Source: Mytilus trossulus (taxonomy: Eukaryota). From it: DNA of 64,000 nt. Under the pieces are notes generated by a model, which was not told the DNA's origin, did not search any database, and saw nothing but the letters and a program-made list of their open reading frames with translations. Each line of letters opens with the position of its first letter. Position 1 is the first letter of the stretch. The stretch is from contig NC_086375.1 in assembly GCF_036588685.1 (NCBI RefSeq), positions 52,762,001-52,826,000 on the forward strand, given 5' to 3'. Position numbers and translations under genes: made by a program. Below are positions 2,313 through 35,512 of this stretch, piece by piece.

Positions 2313-2316
2313 AAAT

Positions 2317-3420
2317 ATGGATACTTCCGTCAAACTTGGTGTCGGGATAAGTTTCACGCTGATTGCAGTTTTAGGATTGCTATTTAACATTTTATATGTT
2401 TTCGTTTTCATCAGAAGAAGACAACTTCGCCAACCAACTAAATACTTCTTATTCAGTTTAGCTTTAGTAGACATAATATCTATCACATTCTGGACACTGT
2501 TTAGTCTGATATCAGCTTTCCTGGGAGAATGGGGACTACCAACCGAGGTTTGCCAACTTCAAGAATTTACAATGTCTTTTTGTCTCCTGTTGAATATGCA
2601 TACATTCATGCTGCTGGCATTAGAGAGGGCACTTTTCATATTAAAGCCATCTCGACACAGTGAAATATGCATTAATACGGTAATTGTTATTATTCTAATT
2701 GCTATGTGGCTTTTTGATGCAGTTATTTCAATTTTTCCTTTTACCGGATGGGGAGAAATAACCTATTTTGAAAACCAATTTCAGTGTTCTATGGACTATG
2801 AAAAAAACACGCGACAAATGAGATTTGCAACAGCCGTCGCCGTAGGAATTCCGTTTTTAGTCATGGTTATAGCTTATGTTATCATATTCATTAAAATGAA
2901 AAAGTTACAAAAAGGAGTATCTGGAGGAGGCCAGATAATATTGGAACAAGCAGATTGTGCGAACGGAGACAGCTACTCGGCTAGGCTTAAACGACAACAG
3001 CTGAAATTCCAGAATGCTGGAATGAAACGAAAGAAACCGATATTAGGAAGAGAAATCGATAAAGATGGATTTGCTCGAGATGAAAGCTCAGATGAAGAAA
3101 ATAAGACGTCAAAGGACACAGAAGGAGTTAAAAACATTTTTTATTTGTATAAAAGTGATGTGACATGGATCAAAACCTATCTCATCATAACGGTAACATA
3201 TCTGTTGTTATGGATACCGTATATTATCATTACGTATGTTCAAACTTTCGACCGTTACCATGGGATTCCTGATGTTGTGTTTTATATTTTTGTTATTTTC
3301 ACACATTGCACGGCATTTGCAAAACCAGTGGCTTATGTTATTCATAATGAAAATTTCCGCAACCATTTTAAGAAAGCAGTTACCAAGAAGACCAAATACC
3401 GAAACTTTGAAAGAAATTGA
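2317..3420 (+). CDS. Single-exon orphan rhodopsin-class (class A) GPCR, 367 aa
   Basis: Seven hydrophobic segments. Class A motifs: TM1 GLLFN, TM2 SLALVD, TM3 C...LALERA (DRY variant), TM4 W, ECL2 Cys, TM6 LLWIPY, TM7 KPVAY (NPxxY variant), helix 8 NENFRNHF. Long charged ICL3. An in-frame TAA at 2311-2313 fixes the ATG unless splicing adds upstream coding sequence. Confidence 0.93.
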   Translation: MDTSVKLGVGISFTLIAVLGLLFNILYVFVFIRRRQLRQPTKYFLFSLALVDIISITFWTLFSLISAFLGEWGLPTEVCQLQEFTMSFCLLLNMHTFMLLALERALFILKPSRHSEICINTVIVIILIAMWLFDAVISIFPFTGWGEITYFENQFQCSMDYEKNTRQMRFATAVAVGIPFLVMVIAYVIIFIKMKKLQKGVSGGGQIILEQADCANGDSYSARLKRQQLKFQNAGMKRKKPILGREIDKDGFARDESSDEENKTSKDTEGVKNIFYLYKSDVTWIKTYLIITVTYLLLWIPYIIITYVQTFDRYHGIPDVVFYIFVIFTHCTAFAKPVAYVIHNENFRNHFKKAVTKKTKYRNFERN

Positions 3421-6281: not shown

Positions 6282-9200
6282 CTATACAGGTTGGTTCCTA
6301 CGATCAGCCTGTTCATCATCCTGTTGAATGTTACGTACTATAGGTGTGTTCAGTGGTTCTGTATCTTCAGCCCCTTGTTGTATTTGTCCCGGTTTTGTTG
6401 AACAACACCAAACATTATTCTCGGTCTTTCTAGGCATCCGAAGTTTAAGTTTACAGAAGAAATTTTCCTGTCGATATGTACTACAATTGTGTTTGGGTGG
6501 GTATTTGATTCTTACAAATGTTCTGTCAGTTTCTATAAATTCAAGTGGGCCTCCTCTTTTCGAAGCTTTTTCTACAACTGTAACAAGATTTGGACTGAAG
6601 TACTGTCTACATGCCACCAAACTTTCGAAAGTATTATTCGGATTAATTATTGAATATTCCGAAGGATAAATAATTACCAAACTCTTACTATCTTGTGCAA
6701 ATTCTTGTACCTTCTGCCATATAACTGTAAATAAAGCAAACTAGTTTATTCATTGATTGAATTTTAATATATTGTTTGAAGTGCAAAAAAACTTTAAATT
6801 TTCATACATAAAGGCAACAGTAGTATACCGCTGTTCGAAATTCATCAATCGGTTGAGAAAAAAAAATCCGGTTACAAACTAAAACTGAGGAAAACGCATC
6901 AAATATAGGGGGAGAACTACGACACAACAGAAACATAACATTTGAAATGTAACACACAGGAACTAACTATAACATAACAATAGTAATTTTTCTGACTTGT
7001 AACAGGACATTTAAAAAAAAATGTAAGTTGAACCTGATTTTGTAGCATACCAAACCACCCCTTTTTATGGCAATGTTAAATATAACGTTTAAATTACAAC
7101 ATTACATAACAGGACTACAATACAAATACATTGGATAGTCTATGGGCGTTAGTTATTGTGAAAGAACACAATTTATTTAAGAAAACAAATCTAAAAGCGA
7201 CATTCTAGCACTACAAATGTTCAAAAGTCTGAAAAGACCAACCGTTGTCTTGATTTGCGTGACAAATAACCTCGACATTCTCAAAAAGTATGACTTTTGT
7301 TCTAATTTATTTTTAACATGCATACACATTTTTTTTAAAGGTTTTCAGGTGAATAACAAGAAAAAGTAATCAGAAAAATTTATAAAACCAACTTATGGAT
7401 ACAACAATAGATATAACAATGTTTGTATCGACATGTTATTAAAAGCTGGAGAAACGGGATGTCACCAAGAAATCTCCAGAACTTTCAGGGATTTACTAAA
7501 TCACGTATTTTTCAATTCACTATACATTGATTGCTATTTTACGATTTTTTCCGTTGATCTTATGACATGATAATTCATTTCTCGGGAGCCCTGTAAAGTG
7601 ATATGAACAATTATTGCAAAAAACACACCCCAATTATGGGCGTTCGTGCGTTGTCAATAAAACTAACAACGTAGCGACCACCGATAATCTATAAGTAACA
7701 CATCAACAATTTTTCAACAATATAATCCGAAAAGGTTATAGTATGGGAACGAACCCTAAATGTGCATAAATACATTTGATCTTACCAGTTCCACCAGTGA
7801 TGCTTCCAGATATTTTGACATTATAACCGTCTGATTGTAACTTTTTTTGAATTCCTTCAGCAAGTTGTAAATCCTCGTCTTCATGAAGTATAAAGACATG
7901 GTAACTATTTGCACCTAATTTAGAAAAAAAGTATAAATAAAGGACTGCAGCATAATCATTATGACAGTTATACAACTCACAATTATTCTATACTAAACTG
8001 AAGCAAATTTAATAGATAAAACTATAACAACACCATACACCAAACAAATTAGGAGCATCCACAAAATAAATTGGAGGATAATATACAGATTGTAAGGAAC
8101 AGTTTGACTGCCATAACAAAAATGTAATTTCAACCGTTTGAAGGATCTGAATTAGATTGAAATTTATTTCTTCTAGTTGTCTGCCCATAGACTGTTATTT
8201 GTATTCCCGCGCTTCATGGGAAATAAACATTCGAAAAAGACGTGTTTCCCAGTTAAATATTTTTATCTTGCTTTGTCGACATGATATTATGTATCATAAT
8301 GTGCAATTTAAATCAGCACATGGCACTGTCGTGTGGGTATTGAATTTGAACTTTAGTTTGGTTTATTAGTCTTATGTGTACAGGGTTGGGTAGTCTATGG
8401 GCGTTAGTAACTATAGAGGAACAAAATCTTATTTATGAAAACAATTTTAAAAGCGACACTCTATCATTTCAAATGTCCAAAACTCTGAAAAGACCACTCG
8501 TTGTCTCGATTTGCATGACCAATAACTCGACATTCTCAAAAAGTATGACTTTTGTCCTAATTTTTCTCGAAATTTTTTCACTCATATCAAATTTGTATGA
8601 AACTCGGCATGCTCTCGACATTTTGAATACTGTTAAATCTCGACGTTAAAATTTGTCTGGGAATTTCCCGACCGGTTTTTGACATTCTTTTTTTGTTGCT
8701 CAGTATGTGTTGACCATGTTGACATATTCTGAGCATTTTGAATTGTGTCTTGATCTTACTTTTGGTCTCTTTTGTAGAGTTGTCTCATTTGCAATCATAC
8801 CACATCTTCTTTTTCTTTATCTTTGAAATAAAGCTTTAGTATGAAATAAATCTATAAGACATTGACTCTACATATTTGGTTCTTTTACCATCAAAATCTG
8901 TTAAAATTACTGGTCAATAAAACCTTTATTGGCTCATGCAGCAGCAAGGTTAATCAAATATTACAAATTATATAAAACATAGTTTTTGATAAAATAAGAA
9001 TTACCTTGGTCCATTAAATGCCAGTAAGGTATCCGTGAAAGGATAAACAGCTTTATTCTGAAGTAAAACACCGCAGTGAAAACAAATACCAGTGTCAATA
9101 TAACAACACATGGCGCAACTATTCCCTTTATTTCTTCCGCTGTTATCAAAGTCATTTTCGTTATTTCCACACCTAAAAATTACAAATACGAATTTTGTTT

Positions 9201-12200
9201 TTAACATTCAGAATTTTCTTAAATGAAATAATATTTATAGATTTTATATTTGAATATAATATCAATTAAATGTGGTATTTGTGAACAACGTGATATAGTA
9301 AGACAAGTACTTCTTTGCAACTCTAACATATGCATACCTTTTGTAAAACAAACCAATAACTTCTTTATGTTGTGTTTCATAAGATTTTGGTATGCATGAT
9401 ATTTTGAATTGAAATTAAAAAAAACCCGGACAAAACAACTTCAACAAAAAGAAAAAGGCTAAAAAATGAAGAAAAAAACAATCAATAACCATCGCACAAG
9501 AAACCAATAACTGAGCAACTTTTCCAACTATGTGAATACATAACGGACTTCCGGAAATCAAAAAGATCCAGTGTAGCATGGATAAAAGGCCTTTCTTTTC
9601 ATTACAATTTTCTACATAAGGAAATAAATGCCAGTACCAAAACAGGAATATGACAGATGTTTTCAATTGTTTCATGTTTGCTGAAGAATTTTTCATATTC
9701 AATTTTCCTTTGACTTCGGTATTTTTGCTATTTCACTTTTTAGCCCTTGTTGTTGTTTATGGCTATGCCATATATGTTCTATAACGGTTAATTTGATTAG
9801 GAAGAACATAATTCATCTTTTTACCACTTCAAACTCTTTGTGCAATAACTTCCTTGAAAGCAACAATCATCCATCAAGGATTTCCTGATAGGAAACATCA
9901 GGGATGAAATATTATGTGAAAGCAAGAAATATATATATACATTGTATATATAAAAAAAAACATATAAAAACATATATTTCTATATATTCAAAACATTTTT
10001 AAATGGTACGAGGCATGATTAACCTGTAAAAAAGGACAAGGTCCGCATTATTTTCGAGATTCTTTTTGTTTATCAGATATATACAAATTTGTGGGAAATC
10101 TAATTATAGTATCCACCGACAGCGTGAACGCGCAAGTGCAACTATTTGAAAAAAATATACAATTTTGGTTTTACTGTTTCAAAATTGATTTTGATTATGA
10201 TTTTTCCCCTTTAAATGATGTTTTACCCTAACATTTTTTTGCTTAATAAAATTATGATTATGGAAAAGATGTATACTACTGTTGCCTTTATTTACGGTTA
10301 GGATGGATTTCGTCCTCTTTAAATGTATCCAAAAACCTTGGTGACAAAGAACCCTATAACACTTATATTAAATCCTTTATGAACTGATTCTAACACAACA
10401 TAGAGACAAAAATACGTGCTTTACTTACTTGCTTCTTTGAGTTGGACAGTAAACGTTTTATCTCCATACGCCGAAGATACATAACAGGTAAAATTCTGTT
10501 TGAAATCTGTCTGTTCAATAGTTTTTATCACAAAAGTAGATACTTCAATGGTATGCTTTGACCTTACAAATACATTCAGATCAAGTAGACTCAAATTAAA
10601 ATACAATATGACTAAAATGTTATACAGAAGATTTACATATGCTAGTAGTTTTGTAAAATTTGCTACTATTCTTTTTTTTTTTTTTTTTTTTTTTTATCTT
10701 AAACATATCATGTGTTGTGGAAGTTTGTTTCCAACTGCAATGTTTTGATAACAAGTGCATTTTTTACACTATATTTTTTACGGTTAGACTGTTATTTGTT
10801 ATTTTTAAGAAAAAAAAATTGAAATGTGTCCTTTAACTTTGTAAACACTCTTAATTAAGGTTCTAATTTTATTTGCAAATCTCCTTTATATCTTTATTTA
10901 GTTTTCAGTAGAAATTGAAAAGGAAGGGGGAAGAATTGAAGCCTAATTATATTTATATGATTACATTACTATTACATTCCAATTACAGTACAATTACATT
11001 ACAATTTAATTACATTACATATGGGTTTTTTTATATCCACTGTACTATGAACGCATTTCTTAATAACACAAACGATGCAAACTACGCAATGTTTCTAACA
11101 TACGTTTGCAAAGTTTGCAAAGGCATCTACAGTTTGTTGTTCATCGTTTGTTGGTACAAACGCTACATTTGTTTCTAACTTCAACCTTGAATTTGAGTTA
11201 AAAAAAAAGCAGAGAACATTGGAACAATCTGCAAAAAGACAAACAATGCAGTGAAACCTTCGCCCTAGTTCCTATGGTATCATATAAACGTATCGAAATA
11301 TAAAGGAATAACTTGCTAAATCAAGCCAACAGTTTGGAGACTTATGAAAATATGGAAAAAAAATGGTGTAAAGTCTAGAATCCTTACTTTGTTGGCTGAA
11401 GGAACTTTATTTAATTATAACCGAGGAATAAGTCAGCTTACCAACAACATGTGCATGCATTATTTAAAGTTCAAACAGGGTCAGTAAACACTGATTAAAC
11501 GATGAATTTGTTTCTAGTTTTGTAGCGTTTAGCAAACGATAACAAACACCACACAGTTTTACAAAATTTAGGTTAGAAAGAAATGCATATATATATTTCA
11601 TTTTAATATTTAATCAATTATAGACGTACGTTTCAAAGGCATCTGTAGTTTGAGTTTACCAAACACAAGATGTGCTGTATGCGTCTTTATGAAAACCTAG
11701 TGCGTACTTTTTTCCTCGTTAATACATATTTTGTTAAGAAATTTAGGCATTATTTGTGAACAGAAAAGCAGTAATACACGAGGGGTGCCACATGTGGAGC
11801 AATATCTTCTTACCCTTTCGCAGCACCTGGTATCACCTTAGTTTGTGGTAGATTTCGTGCTGCTTTTCGTAGCCTTTAGTTTGCTATGTTGTGTATTGTG
11901 TGCTATCATTTGTCTGTTTGTCTTTTTCTGTTTTAGCTATGGCGTTGTCAGTTTATATCCGATATTTGAGTTTGACTGTCCCTCTGGAACTTTCCCCCCT
12001 CTTGCAAATATCAAAGTTTAAATAAATAAGATATAATAATACCTGTCTACATTTGTTACATTATATCTAGGAAATAATGTATCATCATCTAACGTGTCAT
12101 AATTTTCATCATACCAAGATACATCTTTCGCAGCATCAGAAGTGCACCCAAAATCACCGGTACAAGTAAAACTAACTGTTCCGCCGAGACGTCCATACTG

Positions 12201-15200
12201 AGTCTTAGGTCCATACGCTTCTGGTTTTACTCTGTCTACACAAGCTATGTAAAAAACATGATATTTCTTACTTAAATGTCAAATAAATTGACCGATTTTT
12301 TTTAATATAAGGTCATATAATATGCACAGAAGACTAAGTTTAGCATGCATGGGTTTAACAATTTCTGATAACATTATGATAACAAGCAACTTAATTATTC
12401 ACAAGTCTTAAATAAAAGGCGCTTTTACATTTTTATTAATAACTTTAAATCGGATTTTGTTAATGTTTTAAGGATCGTTTGTTATTTGGAGCTGAATAGT
12501 TCTGGAACATTAAGGACTCATTTTTTTCTTCTATATTTTCGTCTGTATTCCGTTTGATTTTCTTGTACTTGTTCGTTTGTCTAAAGGATTGTCTAATACT
12601 ATTTCGTAATGCTTTTTATTTCTTTGAAATACCGCTTAAGTTTGGTAGAAACAGGATCGCTATTTCCCAGCACAATAATCTAGGGGGACGACCATATAAA
12701 AAATCCCCTTGGGTTAGCAGGATTGATAATGTGAATGTTGCATTTGTGATAAAATAATCCCTATTAGGACAAATTAGGGATGAATATGAGCATAAGACAA
12801 AAAATTATTTTTAATAAATTATATATTTGGGGAATATGGAATGTCACTTATGCGATGAATTTATTTTGTTAAACTTTATCTGTGATAAAGTATTCATGAC
12901 AAAACAAGTCAGAACTTCCTGAGAGTGAAGGCAAAGCATGTACTTTTTATCCTTATTTTATGTGTCTTTTAAATAAATAGAACAAAGTAAGGGTTCAACT
13001 GACCTTTATTATAGTATTTGTATTATTGATCAGCATGCACACTTCATTATTAGGGCTAGTATCTCATTACTATGATTACTGCATGTAATGGTTCAACAAT
13101 ATTTTTACATACCTGCAGAATCATCGTAGGGTTTCACGACATGATAAATCTTACATTTATAATATTTCATAGTGTGATTTCAACGTTAAATTACAATCAG
13201 GTAAATTTCTTAGCTTATTTAAATTTCTAATATGCGAACTACTTTTTTTTTTTTTATCTTAAGACCTATTGTTAGGTTGACATATTCATCTTGCCAAAAT
13301 CTCTTGAGATTGATCTCATTTTCACTGTTAATTTTAGTTTTTATGATACAGTAGTAGAACCACCGTTTCTCTATCCAATACAAAAGTTAGCTAGAAAACA
13401 AGGTTTAATCTACCATTTGTTTATGTGTCTGAATATGCTGAATATGCCTTTACAAAGACAGGAATATAACAGTTGTTTTCCAGCCGTTCCGTTGGTGAGA
13501 GTAGATTCTTAGATTTTATTTGGTTTATAAATTACTTTTTTTTTAATTTACCTTGGAGTTCGATATTTGTTTTCTGACATGTCGTTTTAAGTTTTACACT
13601 GACTTGTGAATTTTGAATGTCCCTTATTTGTATATTTTGTCTGACACTTTAGTATCATTTGCTTAAATATTGTTTTATTTACATTAATTCTACGTAAGAA
13701 AATGACAATACCAAGTCAAGATTATAAAAGTTGTTTTGCTTTCGTTAAATGTATTTGAGCTTTTGATATACCATTTCATAAAAGACTTCTGAATGTGAAG
13801 TTTTCATGCAGTCCGTTTGTTTTGTTTTTTTACTTATTCATGTAATAACTATTATTTAATACTACTTACAGTATACTTCTATTTTGGTAGTGTGATTTGC
13901 AATAACTTTATTCTCACTGGAAAGTGCTATACACCTGTAAATCCCTTCGTTACTCCAACCAATGTCTGTTATCCGAAGGGTCTGGTTTTTATCTCGAAGT
14001 GAAGGCTGATTATCCGACATTCTGTTGACATGAAACCAAGGGAATAGTTGCCACTGCAATCCATCCTTTTTCTTGAATTCCCAAATTATTCTATCATAAT
14101 TTTGAGCGCAGCAATAGACCTTTTTATATTTTCCAACTCTTGCATAATCAAAATCAGCAATTCGGTCTTTTATGAAAATCTCAGACGCTGTAATAAAATT
14201 AACGGTACCAATTTTCTTGCACCAGATGCGCATTTCGACAATACATGTCTCTTCAGTGATGCTCGAGGCCAAAAATATTTGAAATCCAAAGCTTATATAA
14301 AAGATGAAGAGCTATAACAATTGCATTATTTTTATCAGAAATGGAACATATTCTTTCAAAGTTTTCAAAAACTTTGCATGTGCAAAATAATTTCCTAGGA
14401 AATAAGGATACATAGAAGTGTAGCTAACAATATCTAGAATTTACAATTAATCTACATTTTTCTTTTATCGATCTTTTCTGAAACAAATGGTCTTATTATG
14501 TTTGTGTTTGTGTGTGTGTAATACGGCTTTCTAATCGAATTTCCATTCATTTAATATTAAACATACCTGCAAATGGTGATCACAACTATGCCAATCACTA
14601 ATACAAACCCTTAGTTGATACCGTTTTGTGTGATTGTTGATAATTATAGTGTGCAACTATATGAAATAAGAAGGTACCACACAGTAAATCATAAATAGTA
14701 AATGGTGCCAGGATGATGAAATGTTCAAGCAACGGTGTGCTTTATATAACACTTATGTACGAAAACCAACATTTGAGACAGCAACCAAAGGCAACCACTA
14801 TAATACACATAACTTGTTTAAAAATGAGGTAAATTCAAATATTATAAAGTTTTGTAAACCTATAAACCTATGAAAACCTTGAATTTTCAGATGTTATCAA
14901 GGCAGAAGTCCGTCAAACATATAAATACTTATCTACTCATGGCTTCCAAACGTTAGAAGAATTTATACAAAGTTGTCCTATTCAGATCTATCTCCATTGA
15001 TATACTCCTTACCTTTTACCCAAAATTTCAGAAATGATGATATTTGTGAAATGTATTCAGCATAGTGCGTTGATCATAATTAGATTTTACGGAGCCAATG
15101 GAAAATAACTCACATTCTTGAATATGCGTACAGACTTTTCCCGAAGAAAATGGTGGGTACCAACTGGTTGAATAACTGTCTATAAGCATTCCACTATTAT

Positions 15201-15968
15201 GATAGTTGTTTATGGTTCTGTAATACTGCCACAATTTGGTGAGTAATCTTAACAGATATTATTTGTTAATTTGACAATAATTGTTATACAGCAGCAAAAA
15301 TCGTGAAAACAAACATTATACAACAGACAATAAAATTTGAACAGATAAAACAAAAAATCTGTCAAAGACACATAAAAACAGCTGTTGTAGTTGACAGTAA
15401 ATCCAATCAAGACAGACACAAAAATGTAACAATGAAAAACATTACAGGATCAAAAATTAAGACCTTTGTAAAAAAAAGCTTGGTACTTCGGTTAGCAGAT
15501 TTGATCATTAAAAAAATAAATAATGTGTTATGATTGTCAATGAGACAACTCTGCACAAAAGGCCAAATGCAATATAAATAAACATTCATAATACAGGCCA
15601 CCGTATGGCCTTAAAAAAACGAAAACTCATACCGCATTGTAAGTCCCCAAAATGACAAATGAACAATAATTCAAGGATAACATTCTGATTTATGTACAAA
15701 GTAATGACCTAAAACAAATATGACATACATCAACAAAGTCAAAGCTATTTATATGTATCTACAAAATAAAGATGGTGTCGCCAAATTTTATTATTTTTGC
15801 ATTTGCATGTGTCAAATAATTGTTATGTTTCAAATAGAAAACAAATTTCATTACATAATCATAAGCATGTGATGTAAGCTACTCACTTTTAAGTGTTGTA
15901 TTTCCCATCAAAACACAGGACGAAAACACGTTGTCAATTAAAACAAACAGCAATGTAGTGTAAATCAT
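6282..15968 (-). CDS. IL-1 receptor-like protein, paralogue A (signal peptide-Ig-Ig-TM-TIR), 7 coding exons, 491 aa
   Basis: Exons: 15968-15887 (MIYTTLLFVLIDNVFSSC...), 14187-13870 (Ig1: YCC, IIW, EGIYRC), 12244-12043 and 10562-10429 (Ig2: FTCTGDFGC, VSWY, TDFKQNFTC), 9172-9005 (TM), 7914-7786 (TIR box1-like YHVFILH) and 6724-6282 (SKSLVIIY...FFCKLKLRMP, stop TAG). All junctions are GT-AG. Total 1476 nt, open frame. Confidence 0.9.
6808..7125. repeat. High-copy SINE-like dispersed repeat (aaaggcaacagtagtataccgctgttc...)
   Basis: The same family recurs at ~27400-27730, 28030-28250, 42640-42780 and 63455-63625, and reversed at ~21590-21860. Confidence 0.7.
7131..8563. repeat. Pair of ~175 bp diverged direct repeats (7131-7308 and 8387-8563) flanking the first TIR exon of paralogue A
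   Basis: Both run from tagtctatgggcgttagt to ctcgacattctcaaaaagtatgacttttgt.ctaattt. Confidence 0.85.
14219..14262 (-). ncRNA. Minimal type I hammerhead ribozyme motif, intact core
   Basis: Minus strand reads GCAUCA-CUGAAGA-GACA UGUAU UGUC-GAAA-U GCGC A-UC-UGGUGC. Helix I is 6 bp, helix II is 4 bp, loop III is palindromic, and the cleavage triplet is AUC. Confidence 0.85.
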
Positions 15969-16364: not shown

Positions 16365-16901
16365 ATGAGTCTTTTGTAGACGAAACGCCCTTCTGGCGCA
16401 ACTACAATTTTCAATCCTGATATCTATGATGATATCACCATTCCTGTATGATAATTTTTCTATAGCAGCCATGGACTTAAGAGTGACACAGAGAAGCATA
16501 CATTTATAAAGTTGAAGTTCTAAGTGATATCTCAGTTTCTTTAGAGCATATCCAACAGTTTATTTCTGACGGTGATAATTTTACTCTTTAAGATAAGTAG
16601 GCCATTTGTTACCTGCTTAAATCAAATAAGTAATGAGTCTTTTGTAGACGAAACGCCCTTCTGGCGCAACTACAATTTTCAATCCTGATATCTAAGATGA
16701 TATCACCATTCCTGTTTGATAATTTTTCTATAGCAGCCATGGACTTAAGAGTGACACAGAGAAGCATACATTTATAAAGTTGAAGTTCTAAGTGATATCT
16801 CAGTTTCTTTAAGGGCATATCCAACAGTTTATTTCTGACGGTAATAACTTTTCTCTTTAAGATAAGTAGGCCATTTGTTACCTGCTTAAATCAAATAAGT
16901 A
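16365..16901. repeat. Recent tandem duplication, 2 x ~268 bp
   Basis: 16365-16632 and 16633-16901 are near-identical (a few substitutions, one 1-nt indel). This explains the twin spurious ORFs 16299-16499 and 16609-16824. Confidence 0.95.
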
Positions 16902-19900
16902 AAAATGAGGTTGAAATTTCAGATATTTGTTAAAAATTCTGATTTTTGGACGTATTTTTCCTCCCGACAGAAAAACATAACTGTTTTGTTTTAAAAGATA
17001 AACACAAGCTGTTTTTGTTAAATTATTTATAAGTTTTCTGCTATATAAGTATCCTATAAATTTATGAAATATTTTGTTTAGAAATAAATAAATTTATCGA
17101 GTGTTCATGAATGTAGAAAAAACATATATTTTGGCTGTATATCTATCAAATTTAAAAATAAAATGCATCTTTGACTTTTTCATGAAATTTGGTACAAATA
17201 ATCTTCATACGTAATGAAACCAAATGAAATTTTAAAAAAGAGGAGTCGATGAACTCGTTTTCAATTAGTTTGAGTGATAAAAATCAGTACAACAAAAAAA
17301 CTGTTTTTACGCATTTAACGTTAGCGACGTCGTTATATCCCCTGTAACTGTATAGTATGACCTTAATTTCATATTTCTGAATGACGATATTAATTCTTAT
17401 AATAAGACCTTGCATAATATGTGACGAAGTTAGACTGATTATGGTTCCAGTTTTTTGCTTTTGAACAGTTTGTTTGTAGAAAATTGAAATCGCTAATATC
17501 ACAAAGTGCACATTACCAATATGACTATGCTTTTTTCAACTGTGGTTTTAAGATTGTTTAGATTTTTCCGGTTTAAGAACATTGGTCGTACGGTGACCTA
17601 TAGATGTTAATTTTGTTTCATTTTGGTCTGTTGCGGACAGTTGTCTCATTGGCAATCATACCACATCTTCCTTTTTTAATATTGGTACTTGACATAATGA
17701 TTTTTAGCAATTGGAATGAGTGAAAATAGTCAAATGGCGTTATATATTTTTAAAAATTTTAAAGTTACAGAAATAAGACTTTTTGTTATAGGAAAAAAGT
17801 GATTGTAAAAAATCAACTTCTGAAAATAAAAAAAATAAAAAATGCTTGGAATTATATCACATACATGTACAATGTTTTTGATTCTATGAGATTTTCCTGT
17901 CGTCTTCAATGAATATATAAATAAAGCCAACAGTAGTCTACCGGTGTTCAAAATGTATAAATTGATTGAGAAAAAACAAATTCGGGTATATAACAAAAGT
18001 ATATCTTTATTTAAATGGTCCTTAATTTTAAGTCGAGTAAAAATATATATACATATACACATGTACAACTTAAAATAATCTTTCTAAACACTTTACTTAT
18101 ATTTACATCTGGTGATTGAATAAAAATGAACTTTCAATCTTTAGAAATCGTACAACACAAAACTTGTTGGCCTTTCAGTTGACTTTTTTCCATTATGGTG
18201 TTGGCAGTTCCTTCTCGACTTACGGAATTTTAATGACGCTATTGTATCTACCGCCTCTTTTGATAAACTTTAAGGTTTAAAGTAGGATAAGTTATATACA
18301 TGTATTGTAAAAATAAAAACATACATATTATTGAAAATTATCTGTTTTAAATCGTTCTTTTGAATTTGGTGTAACCTTCAGTGATAGATATTTAAAAGTT
18401 GATGAAATACAATGGGTTGGAAATTTTTAAACATTTAAAATCTTTGTGGTTATTATGTTACCTTAAGCTAAGTATTAAGTTTCTATTTTAAGTATCAAAT
18501 TAGTGGGGTTCCGAATTTAAAATGCATTTTTAATCAAATCTGCAACTAATACAAATAGTTATAAAAAAGGATCGACAGACATTGTATCAAATAACATGGT
18601 TAATTTAAAAAGTAACAAAGATAAAATATATGCTAAACACAATCATAGTATATAATTATACATTTACTTAACATGTCAAAATAAATTCGAGTAATATTTG
18701 AAAATTTACCAATGCAGAAAATTTCAATCCGCGCTACAAGTTTATACATTGGTTCCGTATTTTAAAGATTGATTTGAAGAATGTTTAATTGTGGAAATCC
18801 CTTCAAATCCTCTCTCAGAACAATAGATTTAAACTTGAGTACTTTTTTTTTAATAAAACACGTTGTCTACTCCTTTGTAAATATGGCAATTCATATTGAC
18901 AATGCTCCAAATCCTATCAAACTTTACAATACTGTGAATCAACTTATTTCGTTTTTACCAAAGTCTGCGTATGTTCCTTTGGAAAGTGTGTATTTCGTTA
19001 AATATTCAAATCTATGGTTCTCCTGAACCCCGGAAATCAATGATCAATGATAAATCCACAGTTCCTACGGTGGAGATAATTGAAGCGAAATGAAAGATTT
19101 TTCAAAGCAAATTACAACAAAAAGATCAATCGTGTTCTCTGAGGGTAGGAAATCAAACAAAACATATTCAACAAATTAAGTATGGAGCAAAAATTCAAAA
19201 CCATTCTTTTTTGTTGAATTATTTTTGAAAAGTTTTAAGAAATAATGGTGCGTTTTGGAAATATTTAATCTACCGCTAAAATGACATAATTACATGACGG
19301 GAATACAGTACAATAAACTCATCATAGATACCAGGAAATAATTTTGTATATACGCCAGCCGCTCATTTCGTCTACAAAAGACTTACCAATGACGCTCGTA
19401 TTAAAAAAAGTTTTAAAAAAAGCCAAATAAAGTACGAAGTTGAAGAGCATTGAGGACCAAAATTCCTAAAAGTTTTGCCAGATCCAGCTAAGGTACAAAC
19501 AAATGCCAGAACACCAAACACAAATATTTTATGTTGTAAATTTGACTTCCACTCAATATGAATACACTTGTATTTCTTAAGTATTTAACGATTGCAAGTA
19601 ATAGCTTACTAACATGTGTTTCTTAGAAAGTATGTGTATGGAATGATTCTTTAGTCTTAAGTGCACAATATCTTCAAAAGTTTGTATTTTATTTAAACTA
19701 GCTGTCAAAAACTGCAAGTACTGGTATATCTGTGCTTAGTGTTTAAGTTGTTGTTGTGGGGATGTATAAATTTCCTGCCACGACCGGTCTGTATTTTGCG
19801 AGATATCGTTCTGCTTTGTATCGATATGATGGGTTAATATAACAATAGGAAGATGTTATATTATTGCCAATGAAACATCTCTCCGCAATACAGTAAACAA

Positions 19901-23552: not shown

Positions 23553-26500
23553 TTATGCAGATGATTCTTCTTCGCTATTTGATAAATTATGTTGTCCATT
23601 AAGTAATTCTGTATCTTCAGCACCTTGTTGTGTTTGGTCGTTATTTTTTGTACAACACACATTATTTCCTGTCCTTCTAGCCATCCGTAGTTTAAGTTTA
23701 CAGTAGAAATTTTCCTGCCGATATGTACTACAGTTTTGATTAGGTGGATATTTGATTCTAACTAACGTTTTGTCAGAGTCTATAACCTCTACTTTGTCGC
23801 CGGTTCTTTCAGCTTCGTCAACAACTGTAACGAGATTCGGACTGTAGTACTGTCTGACCCCCATGAAACTTTGGAAGTTGTTATTCGGACTATCTTCTGA
23901 ATATTCCGAAGGGTAAATGATAACCAAACTCTTACTTTCTTGTGCAAATTCTTGTGCTTTCTGCATCAGATCTGTTATAAAAAGCAAAAACTAGATAAGC
24001 AATACAGGTTGCATTTCTGTAAATATTGAAAATGCATTTTCCAATAAGAACTCCCTTTACAGGTAAAACTGTACTTCTTTTACTCTGAAGTTTTGAAAAA
24101 ATCGTATCCTTGAATGGAAAGTTCATATCCACCACTATTATTTTCAAAGGTCAAAATATAGGGCTGTGCGGCATATTTTCAACGTTTACATGCAAAGAAA
24201 TATTCACTACATTTCTTAACTACCCCATCCTCGACTGTAGGGTTACCACATATTTCAATATGAAGAATATGTTTATTTACTGGTAACATTCCCAAGTTAT
24301 GTCTCTATAAGATGCAACCTACAGATTAGAACTGGGAACCAGTTTGTAAACCAAATTAATTATCTATGAATATTCTATTTGAAAAACAGCTGTATATACA
24401 AAGTGCAACCTACAGATTTATTTAAACAAAGTTTTAAATTGTCTTAGCCGTATTTAGCACACATTTTCTATATTTTCGGTTTTCAATGCTTTTCACATTT
24501 GTTTTATTATACTTTGACTGATAAGTCTTGTGAAGTCGAAACATACGTTTGGCATACCGAATGGTAATCTGGGTGTCTTTGATTTTAGATCTAATCGATA
24601 CCAATGCTCGTGAGATTTTCATTCATGAGGTTTTCTACATAAGGAAATACTTGTACAAAGTCAGGAATATGACAGTTGTTATCCATTTGTTTTGAGTGTT
24701 TGATGTGTTTATGCTTTTGAGTAGGAACATTCCATCTTGTATTTTCCTTGGAGTTTATTTTTTTTTTACAAAATATATACGAATCAAAGATAACGAATCT
24801 AACCAGTTCCGCCTGTAATACTTCCAGATATTTTGACCGTATAAGAGTCTGATTGAAGTCTTTGTTGAATTCTTCTTGCTAGCTTTGTATCCTCATCTTC
24901 GTGGAGAATGAACACATGGTATTGTCGATCACCTAATTCCAATGATATAGAATAATGACTTTACCATATGATTATTACACGAATTTTTTTTTATGTTTTC
25001 TTATTTTCAACTAAAACAATTATTATAGAATTAAATAAAGACAACATTAATTATACATTGAGGTTCTGAAAAAAGAAATCACCAATTCACCAACATTCCA
25101 ACTGACTCCATTTTCAGAAAACGACATCTGTAACAAACATAAACTTTTAGCTACCGCTTTACAAGCAGAGCCAAATACAATGAAGTTCAAACTATGTATT
25201 GGCTCCCGATTCTACACAAAACACCTCACAAAAAAGATTTATTTCGTCTTCAAGCCATTGCTCCACTACTAAACTGTCTATTCTTCTTACCAGCACACTT
25301 GGTACAATTAAAAACCTTATAATAAATTGTTCAAATAAGGCCTTCGAAAATAGTGGAATTAATTATTTTTGAAGTGTCAAGAACTCGTTGGAAGTACTTG
25401 ATAAATTGCATGCTTATATTGGTGATTTTGAATCTGTTCAAAGTTTTGGTTTTTCTACCCTGTATACCACATTGCCTCACATTCTCATAAAGAAAAAAAT
25501 AACACATCTAATTAAATGGGCATTTAAAAAGTCAGAATGTGAATATATATGTTCAAACTCTTTTAGTTCATTTTTTAGTAGCAATAAACAAAAAAACTAT
25601 GTTAATTGGACTTGATTTGATACTATATATGCCCTTGAATTTTTACTCGATAACATTTTTGTTCGCTTTGGGGATTCCGTATATCGTCAGATTATCGGAA
25701 TTCCAATGGTGACTAACTGTGCACCACTTATTACGGACCTGTTTTGGTATTGCTACTAGTTACAATTTATGACAAAAATAAGCAAAGACCCATCGGAACA
25801 ACATCTGATAAACAAATTTAATAATACTTTTAGATATTTGGATGATATTTTGGCTCTCAATAATGACGACTTCAGTATGTATATTAAAGAAATTTATCAC
25901 GTTGAACTTACTTTAAATAAAGCTGATACTAACAATGACCACTGCCCTTTCCTCGATCTCGATATCTATATCACTAACGGAAAGCTGAATACTAAAATTT
26001 ATGATAAAAGAGATGATTTTTCATTTCCTATCGTTAATTATCCATTTTTAGATGGTGACGTTCCCTTGTCACCATCTTATGGTGTTTATATATCTCAACT
26101 TGTACGATTCGCTCGTGTATGTAACAATGTTTTAGATTTTAATGAGAGAAATTTAAGTATTACTGAAAAATTATTACACCAGGGTTTTCAATATCACAAA
26201 CTAGTCAAAACATATACTAAATTTTATCATCGGTATAAGGACAGCATTCGTAAACATAGCTCAACATGCAGACTTCATATACGTTCAGGTATTTCACATC
26301 CAATTTTTTATGGAAATATTCTTTCTAAAGCACAAAGGTGTCAGTTTTCACCTCAGAAACTAACAAAACCTTTGAATAGACTTATTAAGAAGAGATATAG
26401 TTGCGATACTGTTGTCAGGTCATTAAAGATTGCATATTTTGGCGTTAATATTGATTCACTTACAGGGTCTTTGCATCGGATCTAAACACATTTATTAAAA

Positions 26501-29500
26501 AAACAGTTGTTGGCATGACACGGGTTATGTTCTTCTCATATATGTTATGATGGTATGATACTAAACCCCTAAAGGGAAGGATTGTGCCTGATGTATTACC
26601 AATGTTATTTCAACTGATCGGGCGGAGCTAGGAATTAATTTGCATAAGGACAGTCTATTTGAAGATGTGTGTGATAAGGATGATTGTCGTTATAATTATT
26701 ACTGATTTCTAATCACATATCAGTGTCATCAAAGGAATTTACAAAAGAATTACTAGACACTTCATTGATGAGTTTATCCTAATACACCTATCTATAGATG
26801 GACTGGTTTATTATGAGCGAACCGGTTATACTCCGCCCAGTCAAGCGAAATAAATCGAGTAATACATATGATGAAATCATAATCTTTCAGCCAGTTTAAT
26901 TTAAGACTGGAGCTGGCATGTCAGTTAACTGCTAGTAGTCTGGTTTTTTTTTTTTTTATGTATTATTGTCATTTTGTTTATTTTCTTTGGTTACATCTTC
27001 TGACATCAGACTCGGACTTCTCTTGAACTGAATTTTAATGTGCGTATTGTTATGCGTTTACTTTTCTACATTGGCTAGAGGTATAGGGGGAGGGTTGAGA
27101 TCTCACAAACATGTTTAACCCCGCCGCATTTTTGCGCCTGTCCCCAGTCAGGAGCCTCTGGCCTTTGTTAGTCTTGTATAATTATAATTTTAGTTTCTTG
27201 TGTACAATTTGGAAATTAGTATGGCGTTCATTATCACTGAACTAGTATATATTTGTTTAGGAGCCAGCCGAAGGACGCCTCCGGGTGCGGGAATTTCTCG
27301 CTACATTGAAGACCTGTTGGTGACCTTCTGCTGTTGTTTGTTTCTATGGTCGGGTTGTTGTCTCATTGACACATTCCCCATTTCCATTCTCAATTTTATT
27401 TCAACAGTAGTATACCACTGCGTTTGAAAATCATATATCGATAAAGAAAAGAAATTCGGTTTAAAAACTCAAACCGAGGGAAACACGTTAACTATAAGAG
27501 AAAAACAACGAAACAACAGCAACACCGAAGTGCAACAAAAAAATAAATAAAAAAAAATGCAAAATACATAATTTTTTTATAAGAAAACAACTGTCACATT
27601 CCTGACTTGGTACAGGACATTTTAATGGGGAAAAAGTGGGTTGAATCTGGTTTGTGGCATTCCAACACTTGCTTATTATGACAATGTTAAATATACCGCT
27701 AGAATTACTTAACAGGAATACAGAACAAATAAATTCAAGAACTCTCAAGATTTAAAAAATACATAAATAAATAATGTGATAGTACAAATTCACATATTAA
27801 CTACATAATAACAAAGAATACCTTTAATTAATTAAAGGGCAGTACACAAAAACATCATAATAGAATTATGAATTATGCGTTATACGAATGTATGAACGCC
27901 ACACAATAGTTTGTTGTGTAACTAACTGCACTATCTAACTATGTCGGCCTTTTCCCAAATCAAACTGTGTAAAACAAATAAATCCTGTGCACAAAGTTGC
28001 TTTAAACTAAAATTAAATAGTCTTTATAATTATAGGCAACAGTAGTATACCGCTGTTCAAAACTAATAAATCGATCGATAGAAAAAAACAAATCCGGGTT
28101 ACAAACTTAGACTGAGGAAAACGCATTAAATATACGAGGTGACACAACATGAAAATGAAACACACACAGAAACGAACGAAGCATTAGACAAAATCCGATG
28201 AGTATAACAAATTTAATAAATATAACAAATATAACACCAAAACTAAATACATTATAATATGAAAAAGTATCCAGAGTAACAACAATAAAAAAAAAAGAAA
28301 TTGAAAGAACTAATAAAAAATTCCTTGGAGAATAGAGTAGCTGTCATAAACATTTCAACTTGTGTTTTTTAGGTTGTTATTGTCTATAAATATGATCATA
28401 ACAAGTATTAAAATGTCAAAATGAATGATGTCACTACATTTTGTTTTTACTGTCATACTTCAGCATTTCGTATAAAAAGATGTAAACTTACCTTTGTCTA
28501 TCAAATGCCAATAAGGTATACGGGAAAGAATAAACAGCTTTATTCTCAAATAAAACACAGAAAGGAAAATAATTGCGACTGTTAAAATAATAACCGATGG
28601 TATCACTATTGCCGTTACTTCTTCTGCTGTCATCCAAGTTATGTTGGTTATTTGGATCCCTAAAATATAAAGTAAATTGATTTTTTTCTTAAAATTTGGT
28701 CCAATAAACTTGAGTATAAGTAAAGCATGTAGAATTGTCTTCCTATATGTAATTTGCTATATTATGTACATAAATGTTAAAAAGCACACATGGATATGGA
28801 ATGTGCTTAGTCTTGTTGATCTTAACACTACTCAACAGTGGTAAATTACTCATTGCATAGTTATTGTCGAATGGGAAGTTGGAATTGTACTACAATATAT
28901 ATATATATATATTAGGACCACCTATTTTACAACTTGGACATCTTTTACAGCAAAAAATCAAATTACTGTATTGTGAAGTTAGAAAATGTGCAATATTAAG
29001 TATTAAAGATTAATGAAAGTACCATTTTGCTATGTGTTATAAGAAATTTGAATTACTACGTGAGGGAAACACATCAACTATTAAAGGAAATCAAAGGGAC
29101 AACAGGAACATCAAACTGCAACAAAAACAAACGCCAACACACATAGAAACGAATTAATTGATAGCAATATAAATTCTCTACACCTGATAATTGTCCGGAA
29201 GAGAACGTTTGAAATGAAAATATTTTGTTCGTGTTTGAATTGAATGACAATATATAACAAAACCATGTCATAAATTAACAGTTTCACATTGAGAACTAAG
29301 ATATCAATATCACGTAATGCACCAAAGATGACGGGAAACTTAAAAGCTTTCAGATGAACGTCAGAAGTGTAAGCCACTCCTGAGTTTTAAAGGGGCACTT
29401 ATTGTGTTATTCTAGACAACAAACCATCTGCTTAAAAGATTATTCAGGGGATGCTATACACGCGAAAGGATGTTGGAATTTAAGCTACGATTTGATATTA

Positions 29501-32500
29501 AAATTGATATTTATATAACTTACTTGCTTCCTTTAGTTTGACAATAAACTTGCGATTTCCTTCCTGATAAGTCGATGTTACGAAACAGGTAAAATTCTTT
29601 TGGAAATCTCTCCGTTCAATTCTTTTAATTTCAAACTTGGATTCTATAATGGTGTGATTCGATCTTTGAAAAATATACAAATTAAGTGAAATAAGTTCCA
29701 TTTCATGTTCTCCGGAATATTTTTTGTATTAAATTGTTAATAATAGCTTTATTCCAAATGTTACATTTTTCTCAGATGGTTCGATAAATTTGCATGCTTA
29801 CACAGACGTAACAGATATCAAGTGAAATTAATAATTTTATAACTAAACCGTTAAAACGTAATATCTTTTACTCAATGATAACACTTAATATACTCAATAT
29901 TAACACAAATTAAGTTGGTTTTTTTTTTTGCAGTATGTTTCACATTAAGGATGCTCGCTTGTCATGTTCAAAACAAATTGTCAGATTTTCGGAATTCTAT
30001 GGTTTTATCAATTTGAATGCCTTTATAATTTTGGTCCATTGATCCCCATTTCTTCTTTTAAAATTCTGTTATATGTATAATTATAATCCATCTGTAAAAG
30101 TTTTATAACAATCTTTGTTATTTTTTAATATTTTTGAAATTTAAACTTGACAATAATAAACTATGAACAATCAAGAGAGAACATTTTCCCGCCAAAATTT
30201 CATTGGTGTATATCTCGTAAACAAGCACATTGGCCTATATATATATATATTTGCTATTTTGGTTCCTTTATTCATCCTCTATCAATTTATACTAGTGCTA
30301 TGAAAAGCTTCTTATTTTGAAACTGAGTAGCGAACTTCCTTAAGTTATCTTATATCAACTTTCTAAATTTTTAAGGATATGCTATTTATACAGCTCACAA
30401 TTCAAAAATCTATCGCATTGTCTTCTGAATGAAGTAGGTTAAAATTGTTCTACTGTGCCCATTTCGTGTTGTCTATATATTTTTTTTATTTTGAAACAAC
30501 AAATCTAGAATTTTATAGGATCTACTATTTATATGAGCATTTAACAAGAATAAATATATGATTTATGCATATAACAATGTTTACTATAGTAACAATTTTT
30601 TTAAATGTTAAAATAAAATGACAGTTTTCTGCTCAATAACAAAGTGTTTTATTTAAAAAAACACCATTTGCATAAGTTTTCAATGTATCCATTACATAGT
30701 TAAACAGAACAATTAGTTTCAAGTCGACGATATGGGTATCTATCAAGTTGGACGTGGAATACATAGTTTACAAAGGTACCAGGATTATAATTTAGTACGC
30801 CAGACGCGCGTTTCGTCAAAATAAGACTAATCAGTGACGCTCATATCAAAATACTTATAAAGCCGAATAAGTACAAAGTTGAAGAGCATTGAGGATCCAA
30901 AATTCCAAAACAATTTACCTTATACGTCTAAGGAAATCTCTGCCTGGGATAAGGAAATCATTAGTTTTTCGAAAAATTTAAAGTTTTGTAAACAGGAAAT
31001 TTATAAAAATGACAACATTATTGATATTCATGTCAACATCGAAGTGTTTACCACTGGGCTGCTGATACCCTCGTGAACGAAAATGCATAACCTCCGATTT
31101 TTTTAGAATTTTATTTTACAACGGACGGAGAACATATCAATTTATAAGTTCAGTAAATTTAGTGTCTGCCCTTCCATTATTTGACTCAAGAAAAAAAATC
31201 CCCAAAACGAGTAACAATTGTATCGAGGAGAGAAAATCGAGTGCACCATTTTATGTTAGGGCGTGTATGAGTTGAATATGTTGTCTTGAAAACGTACAAA
31301 GCAAAAGTATTTGATACATCATCTCCCTTCAGATTCATTGCTCTTTTTTTATATCAAGACTACAGGTTGTCTTTATAACAATGCACAGTACTAAAAGATA
31401 AAATATATTGGTCAAGTGAAATACCTTTCTAATGAATCACAAAAACAGAGTATGTGTGTTCGAATAGCTAATTATTACTAAAAGTACTTGATGACAGTCT
31501 TTTAAGTTGGATCTTTGAAAAGAATATTTTTTTTGTGTGTGACAATTAGGGTTTACGTCTTTAACCACTGAAAATTTTAAGTCTGCCTTTCCACGAAATA
31601 TTTACTAAAAACATTTCTAAATGTTTATGAATTTTCGAAAATTCCACCTGCCAACCGATTAGACAATGGTTTTAAGTTAACTCAATGCAGGCAAATACAT
31701 TTGTATTTTAAAATACAACTGGTATGTAAGGATCGTAATGTTGCTATATGGATAAATTTATCGGCTTGCAAGAGCTAAATCATCAGCGCGTCATCCAAAT
31801 GGCGTAATGGGGAGATAATTTTGACGAAGTAGAATCCTGACTGATAAGATTACATTGGTGGCGGACAAAATAAAATGCTTAAATTCCCATACCACTTTTC
31901 TTATTACATTTATCAATTTTAAATGCCACACATCAAATGTTTTAAAAAATAGCACAAAGCGATGAAAATATTATAACTGCAACTAAAATAAAGACAGATC
32001 GCACCATGTCAAAACTAAAAAAAAGCCAAATCATATTTCATTCCTAAAACAATCAAGATCAAACAAAACAAGCTCCAAACATTTCACAAGACAATGAAGT
32101 AAAAAAAAAATAATGCTTAAATCATAACGTTTTCAAGATTGATCACCAGGAAAAACTATTTATTTTGGGAGGTTTTGAGTATAGGATATGACTTTTATCC
32201 TCGTTGCAAGATAAAACGATAAAAGATTGTAAATAACTGATAATTTCGTTACCATATATCTATGGAGGTTTCCTAAAGAGTGTTCATCGGTTTTGTAGAA
32301 ATTGGGTAATTGTGATATAGGTTTCGCATGTACAGATTAAAGAGTAAAGGCCAAATAAAATATTGAAGAATGAATGATAAAGTGATACCTTTCTATTGTT
32401 GTTACATTATATCTAGGAAATATTGTGTTGTTATCCAACGGTTTCAACTCCATTTCACTTTCATCATACCACGATACATCTCTGGCAGCATCTGGAGTAC

Positions 32501-35500: not shown

Positions 35501-35512
35501 GTAAATCATCAT
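23553..35512 (-). CDS. IL-1 receptor-like protein, paralogue B (signal peptide-Ig-Ig-TM-TIR), 7 coding exons, 479-480 aa
   Basis: Exons: 35512(or 35509)-35428 (MMIYTAVVFGLIEHVLSSC...), 33852-33562 (Ig1), 32599-32389 and 29663-29524 (Ig2), 28659-28492 (TM, ...LRIKLFILSRIPYWH), 24932-24804 (YHVFILHEDED...SITGGT) and 23971-23553 (...FYCKLKLRMA). GT-AG throughout, same phases as A, 1443 nt open. Confidence 0.9.
26547..26592 (+). promoter_or_regulatory. SECIS-like element core (form 2) in the 3' UTR of the Penelope-like element
   Basis: AUGAU-GGUAUGAUACU-AAA-CCCC UAAA GGG-A-AGGAUUGUGCC-UGAU. It has the UGAN/NGAN quartet, an 11-bp upper helix, unpaired AAA and an apical mini-helix, 62 nt after the stop codon. 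Confidence 0.75.
26593..26865. mobile_element. ~273 bp MITE with imperfect ~35 bp terminal inverted repeats, inserted in the retroelement 3' UTR
   Basis: Left end gtattac...gggcggag, right end ctccgccc...gtaatac. The segment is absent at the equivalent position (~56021) of the second copy. Confidence 0.8.
29949..30339. mobile_element. Non-autonomous DNA transposon with TTAA target duplication (Kolobok-like)
   Basis: ttaa|ggatgctcgct ... agcgaacttcc|ttaa: imperfect 11-bp inverted termini flanked by TTAA. Confidence 0.6.
30765..31082 (-). mobile_element. Hammerhead-bearing dispersed repeat (Penelope pseudo-LTR or retrozyme-like); ribozyme core mutated
   Basis: Collinear with 52078-52407. The motif at 30797-30840 reads CUGAUUA instead of CUGAUGA. 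More decayed copies lie near 16363, 16633, 19320-19495, 21220-21330, 24450-24560, 36025-36300 and 53935-54045. Confidence 0.8.
35000..35152. repeat. Short self-complementary repeat family (ggtccgaccatacgcg / tactcata)
   Basis: Related copies at ~43580-43662 and ~47633-47715. Confidence 0.65.

Follow-up and report, generated by a model that had tools for sequence, protein, structure and literature searches.

Tandem two-Ig TIR receptor genes of a mussel and their probable common descent with vertebrate interleukin-1 receptors

The receptors of the vertebrate interleukin-1 (IL-1) receptor family consist of a signal peptide, extracellular immunoglobulin (Ig) domains, one transmembrane (TM) helix and in the cytoplasm, a TIR domain (named after Toll and the interleukin-1 receptor). 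Separate origins of Ig-TIR receptors were left open by Miller 2007 (PMC1896004), and the homology of invertebrate Ig-TIR receptors to IL-1R is called an open question in a recent preprint (10.1101/2025.07.17.662885). The preprint describes the IL-1 receptor family as having "two or three" Ig domains, reports IL-1anc genes in bivalves and a linkage of IL-1 to IL-1R-like genes in cnidarians and ambulacrarians, and infers an ancestral IL-1/IL-1R locus from synteny; the introns analysed in the available part of it are those of the ligand, not of the receptor, and insect IL-1 was not found. Here we analyse a window of 64,000 nt from the mussel Mytilus trossulus (GCF_036588685.1, NC_086375.1 positions 52,762,001-52,826,000, forward strand), which contains three tandem minus-strand genes (g1, g2 and g3), each encoding a signal peptide-Ig-Ig-TM-TIR protein.

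The protein type is already known, and the mussel genes are new members of the invertebrate IL-1R-like kind. Their interest lies in the evidence for homology, which consists of an exact intron match to a human gene, an inner Ig that specifically resembles the third Ig (D3) of vertebrate IL-1 receptors, and collinear relatives across the Bilateria. Judged from sequence comparison, mussel and vertebrate IL-1 receptors probably share common descent (we put the probability at about 0.8), from a gene that would have carried the inner Ig, TM helix and TIR domain as a joined module before protostomes and deuterostomes separated. The initial annotation of this DNA had proposed a module of that age, and the three kinds of evidence support it. 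Intron position and D3-specific similarity are independent of the saturated TIR trees and can be tested across public genomes.

Introns, the inner Ig domain and relatives across animals

Each of the three genes has seven coding exons, for the signal peptide, the first Ig (Ig-a), the two halves of the inner Ig (Ig-b), the TM segment and the N- and C-terminal parts of the TIR domain (TIR-N and TIR-C). From the signal-peptide exon to TIR-N the intron phases are 1, 1, 2, 1, 1 and 1 in all three genes (Ig-a 1, mid Ig-b 2, end of Ig-b 1, TM 1, TIR-N 1), and the codons split after the signal-peptide exon are S134, R201 (phase 2), S246, G302 and V345 in g1. The inner Ig interrupted by a phase-2 intron, with phase-1 introns before box 1 and after the BB loop, had already been noted and is present in 3/3 genes. 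The three are recent paralogues, and we therefore count their agreement only once.

The intron after the BB loop lies in the same codon and in the same phase, phase 1, in the mussel genes and in human IL1RAPL1 (T458). The human position follows from the splice mutation c.1372+1G>T, listed in a table of PMC6249203: 1372 equals 457 x 3 + 1, which places a phase 1 intron in codon 458. In PMC3221541 the IL1RAPL1 TIR domain is given as 403-562, with a Y459X mutation; the corresponding Tyr is at position 57 of chain 1t3g, which fixes the numbering and makes codon 458 position 56. In an alignment that has no gap between the box-2 Arg and the end of betaC, that position falls on the profile column where the mussel codon V345 is split. 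The naive chance of such a match is 1/(141x3), or about 0.002 by simple arithmetic. The match to vertebrate introns after the BB loop that the initial annotation had proposed is therefore borne out for IL1RAPL1 in codon and phase. The alternative last exon of IL1RAP spans alphaB to alphaE (PMC9213720), so that the last exon begins at approximately alphaB, in agreement with the mussel alphaB from residue 346. In three gene-called fragments, probably molluscan, TIR-C homology begins at the V345 column.

Other junctions were compared indirectly, through isoforms and gene models, and their phase is 0 or 1 in most cases. Mullet (Mugil) IL-1R isoforms part from each other at the S246 column, where D3 ends. 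From two amphioxus gene models a phase-1 junction can be deduced near S134, and another junction 4 codons before the box-1 Tyr. In a locust isoform that lacks the TM exon, the S246 column is followed directly by the G302 column, which marks both ends of that exon. Vertebrate IL-1R genes presumably have a pre-box-1 intron at the same codon as the mussel, and we take the TIR introns of MyD88 to lie at other positions. We found no intron analysis of invertebrate IL-1R-like receptor genes in the literature, in so far as the sources were available; PMC13736523 (the 2026 journal version of the IL-1anc study) or supplements may cover it. Receptor intron positions were not found in the available parts of PMC7144542, PMC5861070, PMC9334734, PMC4090809, PMC9643328, PMC4598789, PMC4773179 and PMC11629504.

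The inner Ig provides evidence of a different kind. When the M. trossulus protein LOC134711810, which contains the g1 model from Ig-a on, was compared with the PDB, IL-1R-family ectodomains were the top 8 of 34 rows. We then used an Ig-b profile of 11 sequences (9 from the close group of the named or window molluscs, plus further relatives, with deuterostomes excluded). IL18RAP (53.8 bits), IL1RAPL1 and ST2 (40.5 bits) fill the top 6 of 1242 PDB rows, and the scoring stretch is D3 in all five alignments shown. The same profile gives 38 bits with the mullet D3 and at most 17.6 bits with unrelated Igs. By these profile scores the mussel membrane-proximal Ig is specifically D3-like. The motif C.A.FG that the initial annotation attributed to the third Ig of vertebrates occurs in IL18RAP, IL1RAPL1 and ST2, but the mullet IL-1R has a variant of it and IL1R1 is not among the best 60 rows.

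A structure model based on an alignment (predicted local distance difference test, pLDDT, 76.9; predicted template modelling score 0.37) was used in place of a single-sequence fold (pLDDT 38.7), and contains two Igs, the TM helix and a full TIR domain with alphaB at 346-355. Modelled residues 37-245 superpose on IL1RAPL1 148-352, the second and third Igs (D2-D3), with a root mean square deviation of 3.7 A over 189 residues and Z 13.5, the lowest deviation among two-domain rows. By alignment, the two mussel Igs correspond to vertebrate D2-D3.

A phmmer search over 1.84 billion representatives gave 95 matches, of which 30 were looked up and 24 had names. Family members among the named matches come from bivalves, gastropods, Owenia, Lingula, Lineus, Schistocerca, Anabrus, Neocloeon, Ptychodera and Branchiostoma, together with two vertebrate entries, a Mugil "interleukin-1 receptor type 1" and a cichlid ectodomain; no cnidarian or sponge is among the 24. 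Named PSG-like and PTK7-like matches were set aside as unrelated Ig proteins. Relatives collinear with the mussel proteins occur among the 95 matches in an annelid, a brachiopod, a nemertean, insects, a hemichordate, amphioxus and the Mugil IL-1R1. The Ptychodera relative matches with an expectation value (E) of 5.6e-14 over query 5-408, and a mussel profile and the Mugil IL-1R align, with probability 95.8, along 313 columns that run from D2 to box 3. A scan of metagenome contigs with the mullet TIR found no relative in 227 pattern matches, a search of viral contigs found no relatives, and an Atlas feature search gave generic TIR clusters only, below 0.9. A search with an amphioxus TIR yielded just 4 proteins, all of them from amphioxus.

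Some relatives have features of their own. The inner Ig or the whole ectodomain is tandemly duplicated in M. galloprovincialis (P0009), cichlids (P0098 and P0133) and mullet (P0100), in mussels and fish alike. Relatives P0017, P0019, P0020, P0023-P0025 and P0029 form a subgroup with a long acidic insert ahead of the last TIR strand.

Points against common descent and rival explanations

Several observations weigh against common descent. Only one vertebrate intron, that after the BB loop, has been tested exactly. The D3 intron of IL1RAPL1, which we take to be in codon 304, would lie about six columns upstream of mussel R201, so that phase and strand match but the column does not. Introns also move: in 10 of the 12 loci found with an arthropod alignment (L003-L012), the Trp codon of the first Ig is interrupted by a phase-2 intron that is absent in the mussel. 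Ten of the 12 loci comprise the first exon only, two are uninterrupted and probably transcripts, and none extends to the TIR introns. With the Ig-b profile, IL1R2 and IL1RAcP reach only 31 bits, level with antibody light chains, and IL1R1 is outside the best 60 of 1242. Whole-protein profiles place Robo, DSCAM and titin over the IL-1Rs on summed score, a ranking that favours many-Ig proteins because scores are summed. In structure comparison, the ectodomain Z values tie with those of FGFR2 and DIPs, and the top Foldseek rank is RAGE.

The Ig trees give no supported clade of invertebrate Ig-b and fish D3. In the larger tree the first Igs of molluscs, annelid, insects and Ptychodera form a clade with support of 99/93 (10 of 12 Ig-a rows), with the first Igs of amphioxus and fish outside it. 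On one side of a 90/87 branch stand 27 Ig-b/D3 rows, joined by a single outgroup Ig and a single very long row, in a set whose domains were cut unevenly; the fish D3 rows have long branches and are unplaced. With fewer rows and evenly cut domains, Ig-b and D3 did not form a group, and the forced group was not rejected (approximately unbiased test, p-AU 0.586), the tree that holds the two together being 2.9 log-likelihood units higher. The Ig trees are compatible with homology and no more than that.

The TIR domain does not separate IL-1 receptors from Toll-like receptors (TLRs). Profile scores tie (TLR6 97.8 and IL1RAPL1 96.7 bits; in another search TLR15 86.3, SIGIRR 84.1 and TLR1 83.5), as do the fold Z values of oyster TIR-STING (14.8), MyD88 (14.5) and IL-1RAcPb (14.2). 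Among the chains listed, the alignments of those from the IL-1R family reach the final TIR profile position, in box 3, and those of the TLR chains end 1-19 positions earlier. The box-3 motif that the initial annotation connected with vertebrate IL-1Rs is present in IL1RAPL1/2 but is not diagnostic, because Drosophila Toll has the same ending. Our TIR tree had 25 rows, with one vertebrate and no TLR or MyD88 row. The TIR evidence as read from these comparisons is neutral between IL-1R and TLR.

These ties would be expected if a TIR exon pair with old introns common to several TIR families had been fused to Igs independently in invertebrates and vertebrates. Independent origins were argued from TIR trees and low similarity in Zhang 2010 (PMC2858798) and an actiniarian study (PMC5094078), and the trees of PMC1896004 can be counted on the same side. 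Phase-1 boundaries favour shuffling, and in Branchiostoma P0090, P0138, P0154 and P0155 an extra domain (PF12248) follows the TM segment and precedes the TIR, at the junction before box 1. The Ig-TM-TIR protein P0089 combines a TLR-like TIR with an inner Ig that does not belong to the D3-like group, scores only 14.9 bits with the Ig-b profile and is placed among outgroup Igs in the tree; the protein is a candidate independent fusion, and some Ig-TIRs may have arisen in this way. As an account of the mussel genes we nevertheless regard convergent shuffling as unlikely, since it leaves unexplained the D3-specific inner Ig at the top of 1242 PDB matches, the collinearity from D2 to box 3 and the matching junctions at the end of D3, and a single clade of Ig-b and D3 is not rejected by the trees. 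It is more improbable still that the invertebrate two-Ig family is old and that vertebrate IL-1Rs are mosaics sharing part of it (D3-TM, or TIR) after domain exchange. The position of the amphioxus and fish first Igs, the unplaced fish D3 rows and the apparent displacement of the mid-D3 intron, if its vertebrate position is indeed codon 304, would fit such a mosaic, but the D3 signal and the TIR intron match both indicate the same vertebrate family.

Common descent of the mussel and vertebrate receptors is therefore the reading that we prefer; on this reading the first Ig of the three-Ig receptors (D1) would have been added in vertebrates or lost in the two-Ig lineages. Common descent may extend further. 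The evidence is evenly poised on the broader proposal that one urbilaterian gene of the D2-D3-TM-TIR type gave rise to a family comprising the vertebrate IL-1Rs and the two-Ig TIR receptors known from molluscs, annelids, brachiopods, nemerteans, insects, hemichordates and amphioxus, with TIR introns unique among TIR families and with the mussel paralogues as IL-1anc receptor and co-receptor. If there was such a single gene, the parallel-evolution reading taken from TIR-only trees is wrong for bilaterians.

Gene models and other features of the window

The three genes are real and intact, with splicing demonstrated for g1 and with g2 and g3 as gene models. All splice sites are GT-AG and the frames are open, with 0 internal stops. 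The five downstream g1 introns (1061, 1090, 1256, 1480 and 1625 nt) are exactly skipped by contigs from 4/4 runs; these runs (of 23 listed) come from 3 studies of related mussels, at a likeness of at least 88%, and their RNA status is presumed, not on record. One X1 contig with g2-type letters joins the TIR exons at the same place. Exons of g1 and g2 are 72-82% identical in DNA. Over its TIR-C exon g1 matches M. trossulus LOC134711810 (P0001) with 100% identity, and M. trossulus LOC134711812 X3 is contained in the g3 model. The initial annotation had covered 6282..12244, which lies in g1 but is part of it only (g1 = 15968-6282). Its motifs hold overall, except that eight residues and not four separate FG from V.WY, and that box 3 of g2 ends in RMA and not RMP.

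Pfam finds Ig domains in 9/9 mytilid-group proteins and a weak TIR_2 in 8/9; the TIR_2 score is 21.7 bits, under the Pfam cut-off of 28. The BB loop of the mussel TIRs is degenerate, without the RD..PG consensus. A leucine-rich repeat (LRR) ectodomain of the Toll-like receptor kind was not found, Pfam giving only Ig families there in 9/9 mytilid-group proteins. All three genes encode two Igs, not the three of ligand-binding IL1R1-type receptors, and for that reason we do not file them as an IL1R1 orthologue.

Table 1. Exons of the receptor genes, followed by other features of the window (positions within the 64,000 nt)
Feature	Position	Strand	Evidence or remark
g1 exon 1, encoding the signal peptide and a conserved N-terminal Cys; phase 1 at its end	15887..15968	-	one contig carries exon 1 plus next exon
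g1 first Ig, single exon, aligns to IL-1R D2; ends phase 1 in S134	13870..14187	-	gene model, contigs, structure alignment
g1 first half of the membrane-proximal Ig, with C.GDFG and WY; ends in R201, split in phase 2 at the end of strand D	12043..12244	-	gene model, contigs, structure model
g1 second half of the membrane-proximal Ig; ends in S246, split in phase 1	10429..10562	-	gene model, contigs
g1 transmembrane exon; ends in G302, split in phase 1, 4 codons before box-1 Tyr	9005..9172	-	gene model, contigs, structure model
g1 TIR first exon, from box 1 to the BB loop; ends in V345, split in phase 1, column of IL1RAPL1 T458	7786..7914	-	gene model, contigs, profile alignment
g1 TIR last exon, from alphaB to box 3, with the tail	6282..6724	-	gene model, contigs, database identity
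g2, exons 35512-35428, 33852-33562, 32599-32389, 29663-29524, 28659-28492, 24932-24804, 23971-23553; phases as g1	23553..35512	-	gene model; M. edulis counterpart
g3, exons 54247-54148, 52034-51720, 50530-50341, 49766-49633, 43125-42943, 39755-39621, 39305-38929; phases as g1	38929..54247	-	gene model; database protein within model
Single-exon rhodopsin-family G protein-coupled receptor, 368 aa, tail to tail with g1	2314..3420	+	7tm_1, E 3.2e-37
Retrotransposon gag open reading frame in 6.5 kb g3 intron	44753..45841	+	PF03732
Broken reverse-transcriptase-like open reading frame	25373..26485	+	similar to next row; no Pfam match at E 0.001 where scanned
Broken reverse-transcriptase-like open reading frame	56141..57859	-	similar to previous row; no Pfam match at E 0.001 where scanned
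Tandem repeat, unit about 500 nt	41136..42559		self-BLAST
Tandem repeat, unit 160-320 nt	48736..49376		self-BLAST
Tandem repeat, unit about 270 nt	16365..16902		self-BLAST

Proposed function and comparison with known receptors

The known biology of the family, the IL-1anc genes of bivalves and the linkage of IL-1 and IL-1R genes in cnidarians and ambulacrarians suggest that the mussel proteins could be cytokine receptors that act through paired chains and MyD88 recruitment, a proposal that we hold at even odds. A beta-trefoil IL-1anc cytokine would unite a pair of receptor chains, which may come from different paralogues of the cluster, and the paired TIRs would recruit MyD88 and so activate NF-kB. 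It is likely that the mussel receptors would bind the IL-1-like cytokines reported in bivalves, and g1-g3 are concrete candidate receptors for mussel IL-1anc. The collinear insect proteins suggest that insects keep such receptors despite the preprint having found no insect IL-1. The window contains 329 open reading frames (ORFs) of at least 50 aa, 116 after a composition filter; no PDZ or IL-1 domain (as of an IL-1anc gene) was found by Pfam on 82 of the 116, a scan that short exons would escape.

A somewhat less probable view, to which we still give real weight, accepts the homology and takes the proteins to be decoys or inhibitors like SIGIRR, or adhesion molecules like IL1RAPL, with no cytokine signalling. 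It would account for the loss of RD..PG from the BB loop, for the TIR_2 score below the cut-off and for IL1RAPL1 being among the best ectodomain matches. Against this view, the fold of the TIR is complete, with box 1 and box 3 present, and tandem duplication with fast divergence would fit immune receptors. With such a BB loop, some paralogues may be weak or inhibitory partners even within a signalling system, as SIGIRR is.

A survey of bivalve TIR proteins reportedly appeared in 2017. Among the closest described proteins are the invertebrate two-Ig "IL-1R-like" proteins (named "SIGIRR-like" or "IL1RAPL1-like"; Schistocerca, Anabrus, Ptychodera and Branchiostoma), which share with the mussel proteins the architecture, the N-terminal Cys, the CC motif in Ig-a, collinear alignment and, probably, common junctions. 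The mussel TIRs are more diverged, and the loci found with the arthropod alignment have an additional Ig-a intron. The putative IL-1Rs of Fontenla-Iglesias et al. 2025 are the same kind of two-Ig invertebrate protein. Toll-like receptors have TIRs that score equally well, but the mussel proteins differ from them by the Ig ectodomain and the lack of LRRs. From the vertebrate IL-1 receptor family (IL1RAPL1/2, IL18RAP, ST2/IL1RL1, IL1RAP and SIGIRR) the mussel proteins differ in having two Igs and not three, a first Ig in one exon, a degenerate BB loop, an identity of about 22-24% and a mid-D3 intron apparently about six columns later. They resemble that family in the Ig-TM-TIR order, in an Ig pair like D2-D3 whose inner Ig is closest to D3 with C...FG, in a box 3 ending in MP or LP, and in the phase-1 intron on the codon of IL1RAPL1 T458.

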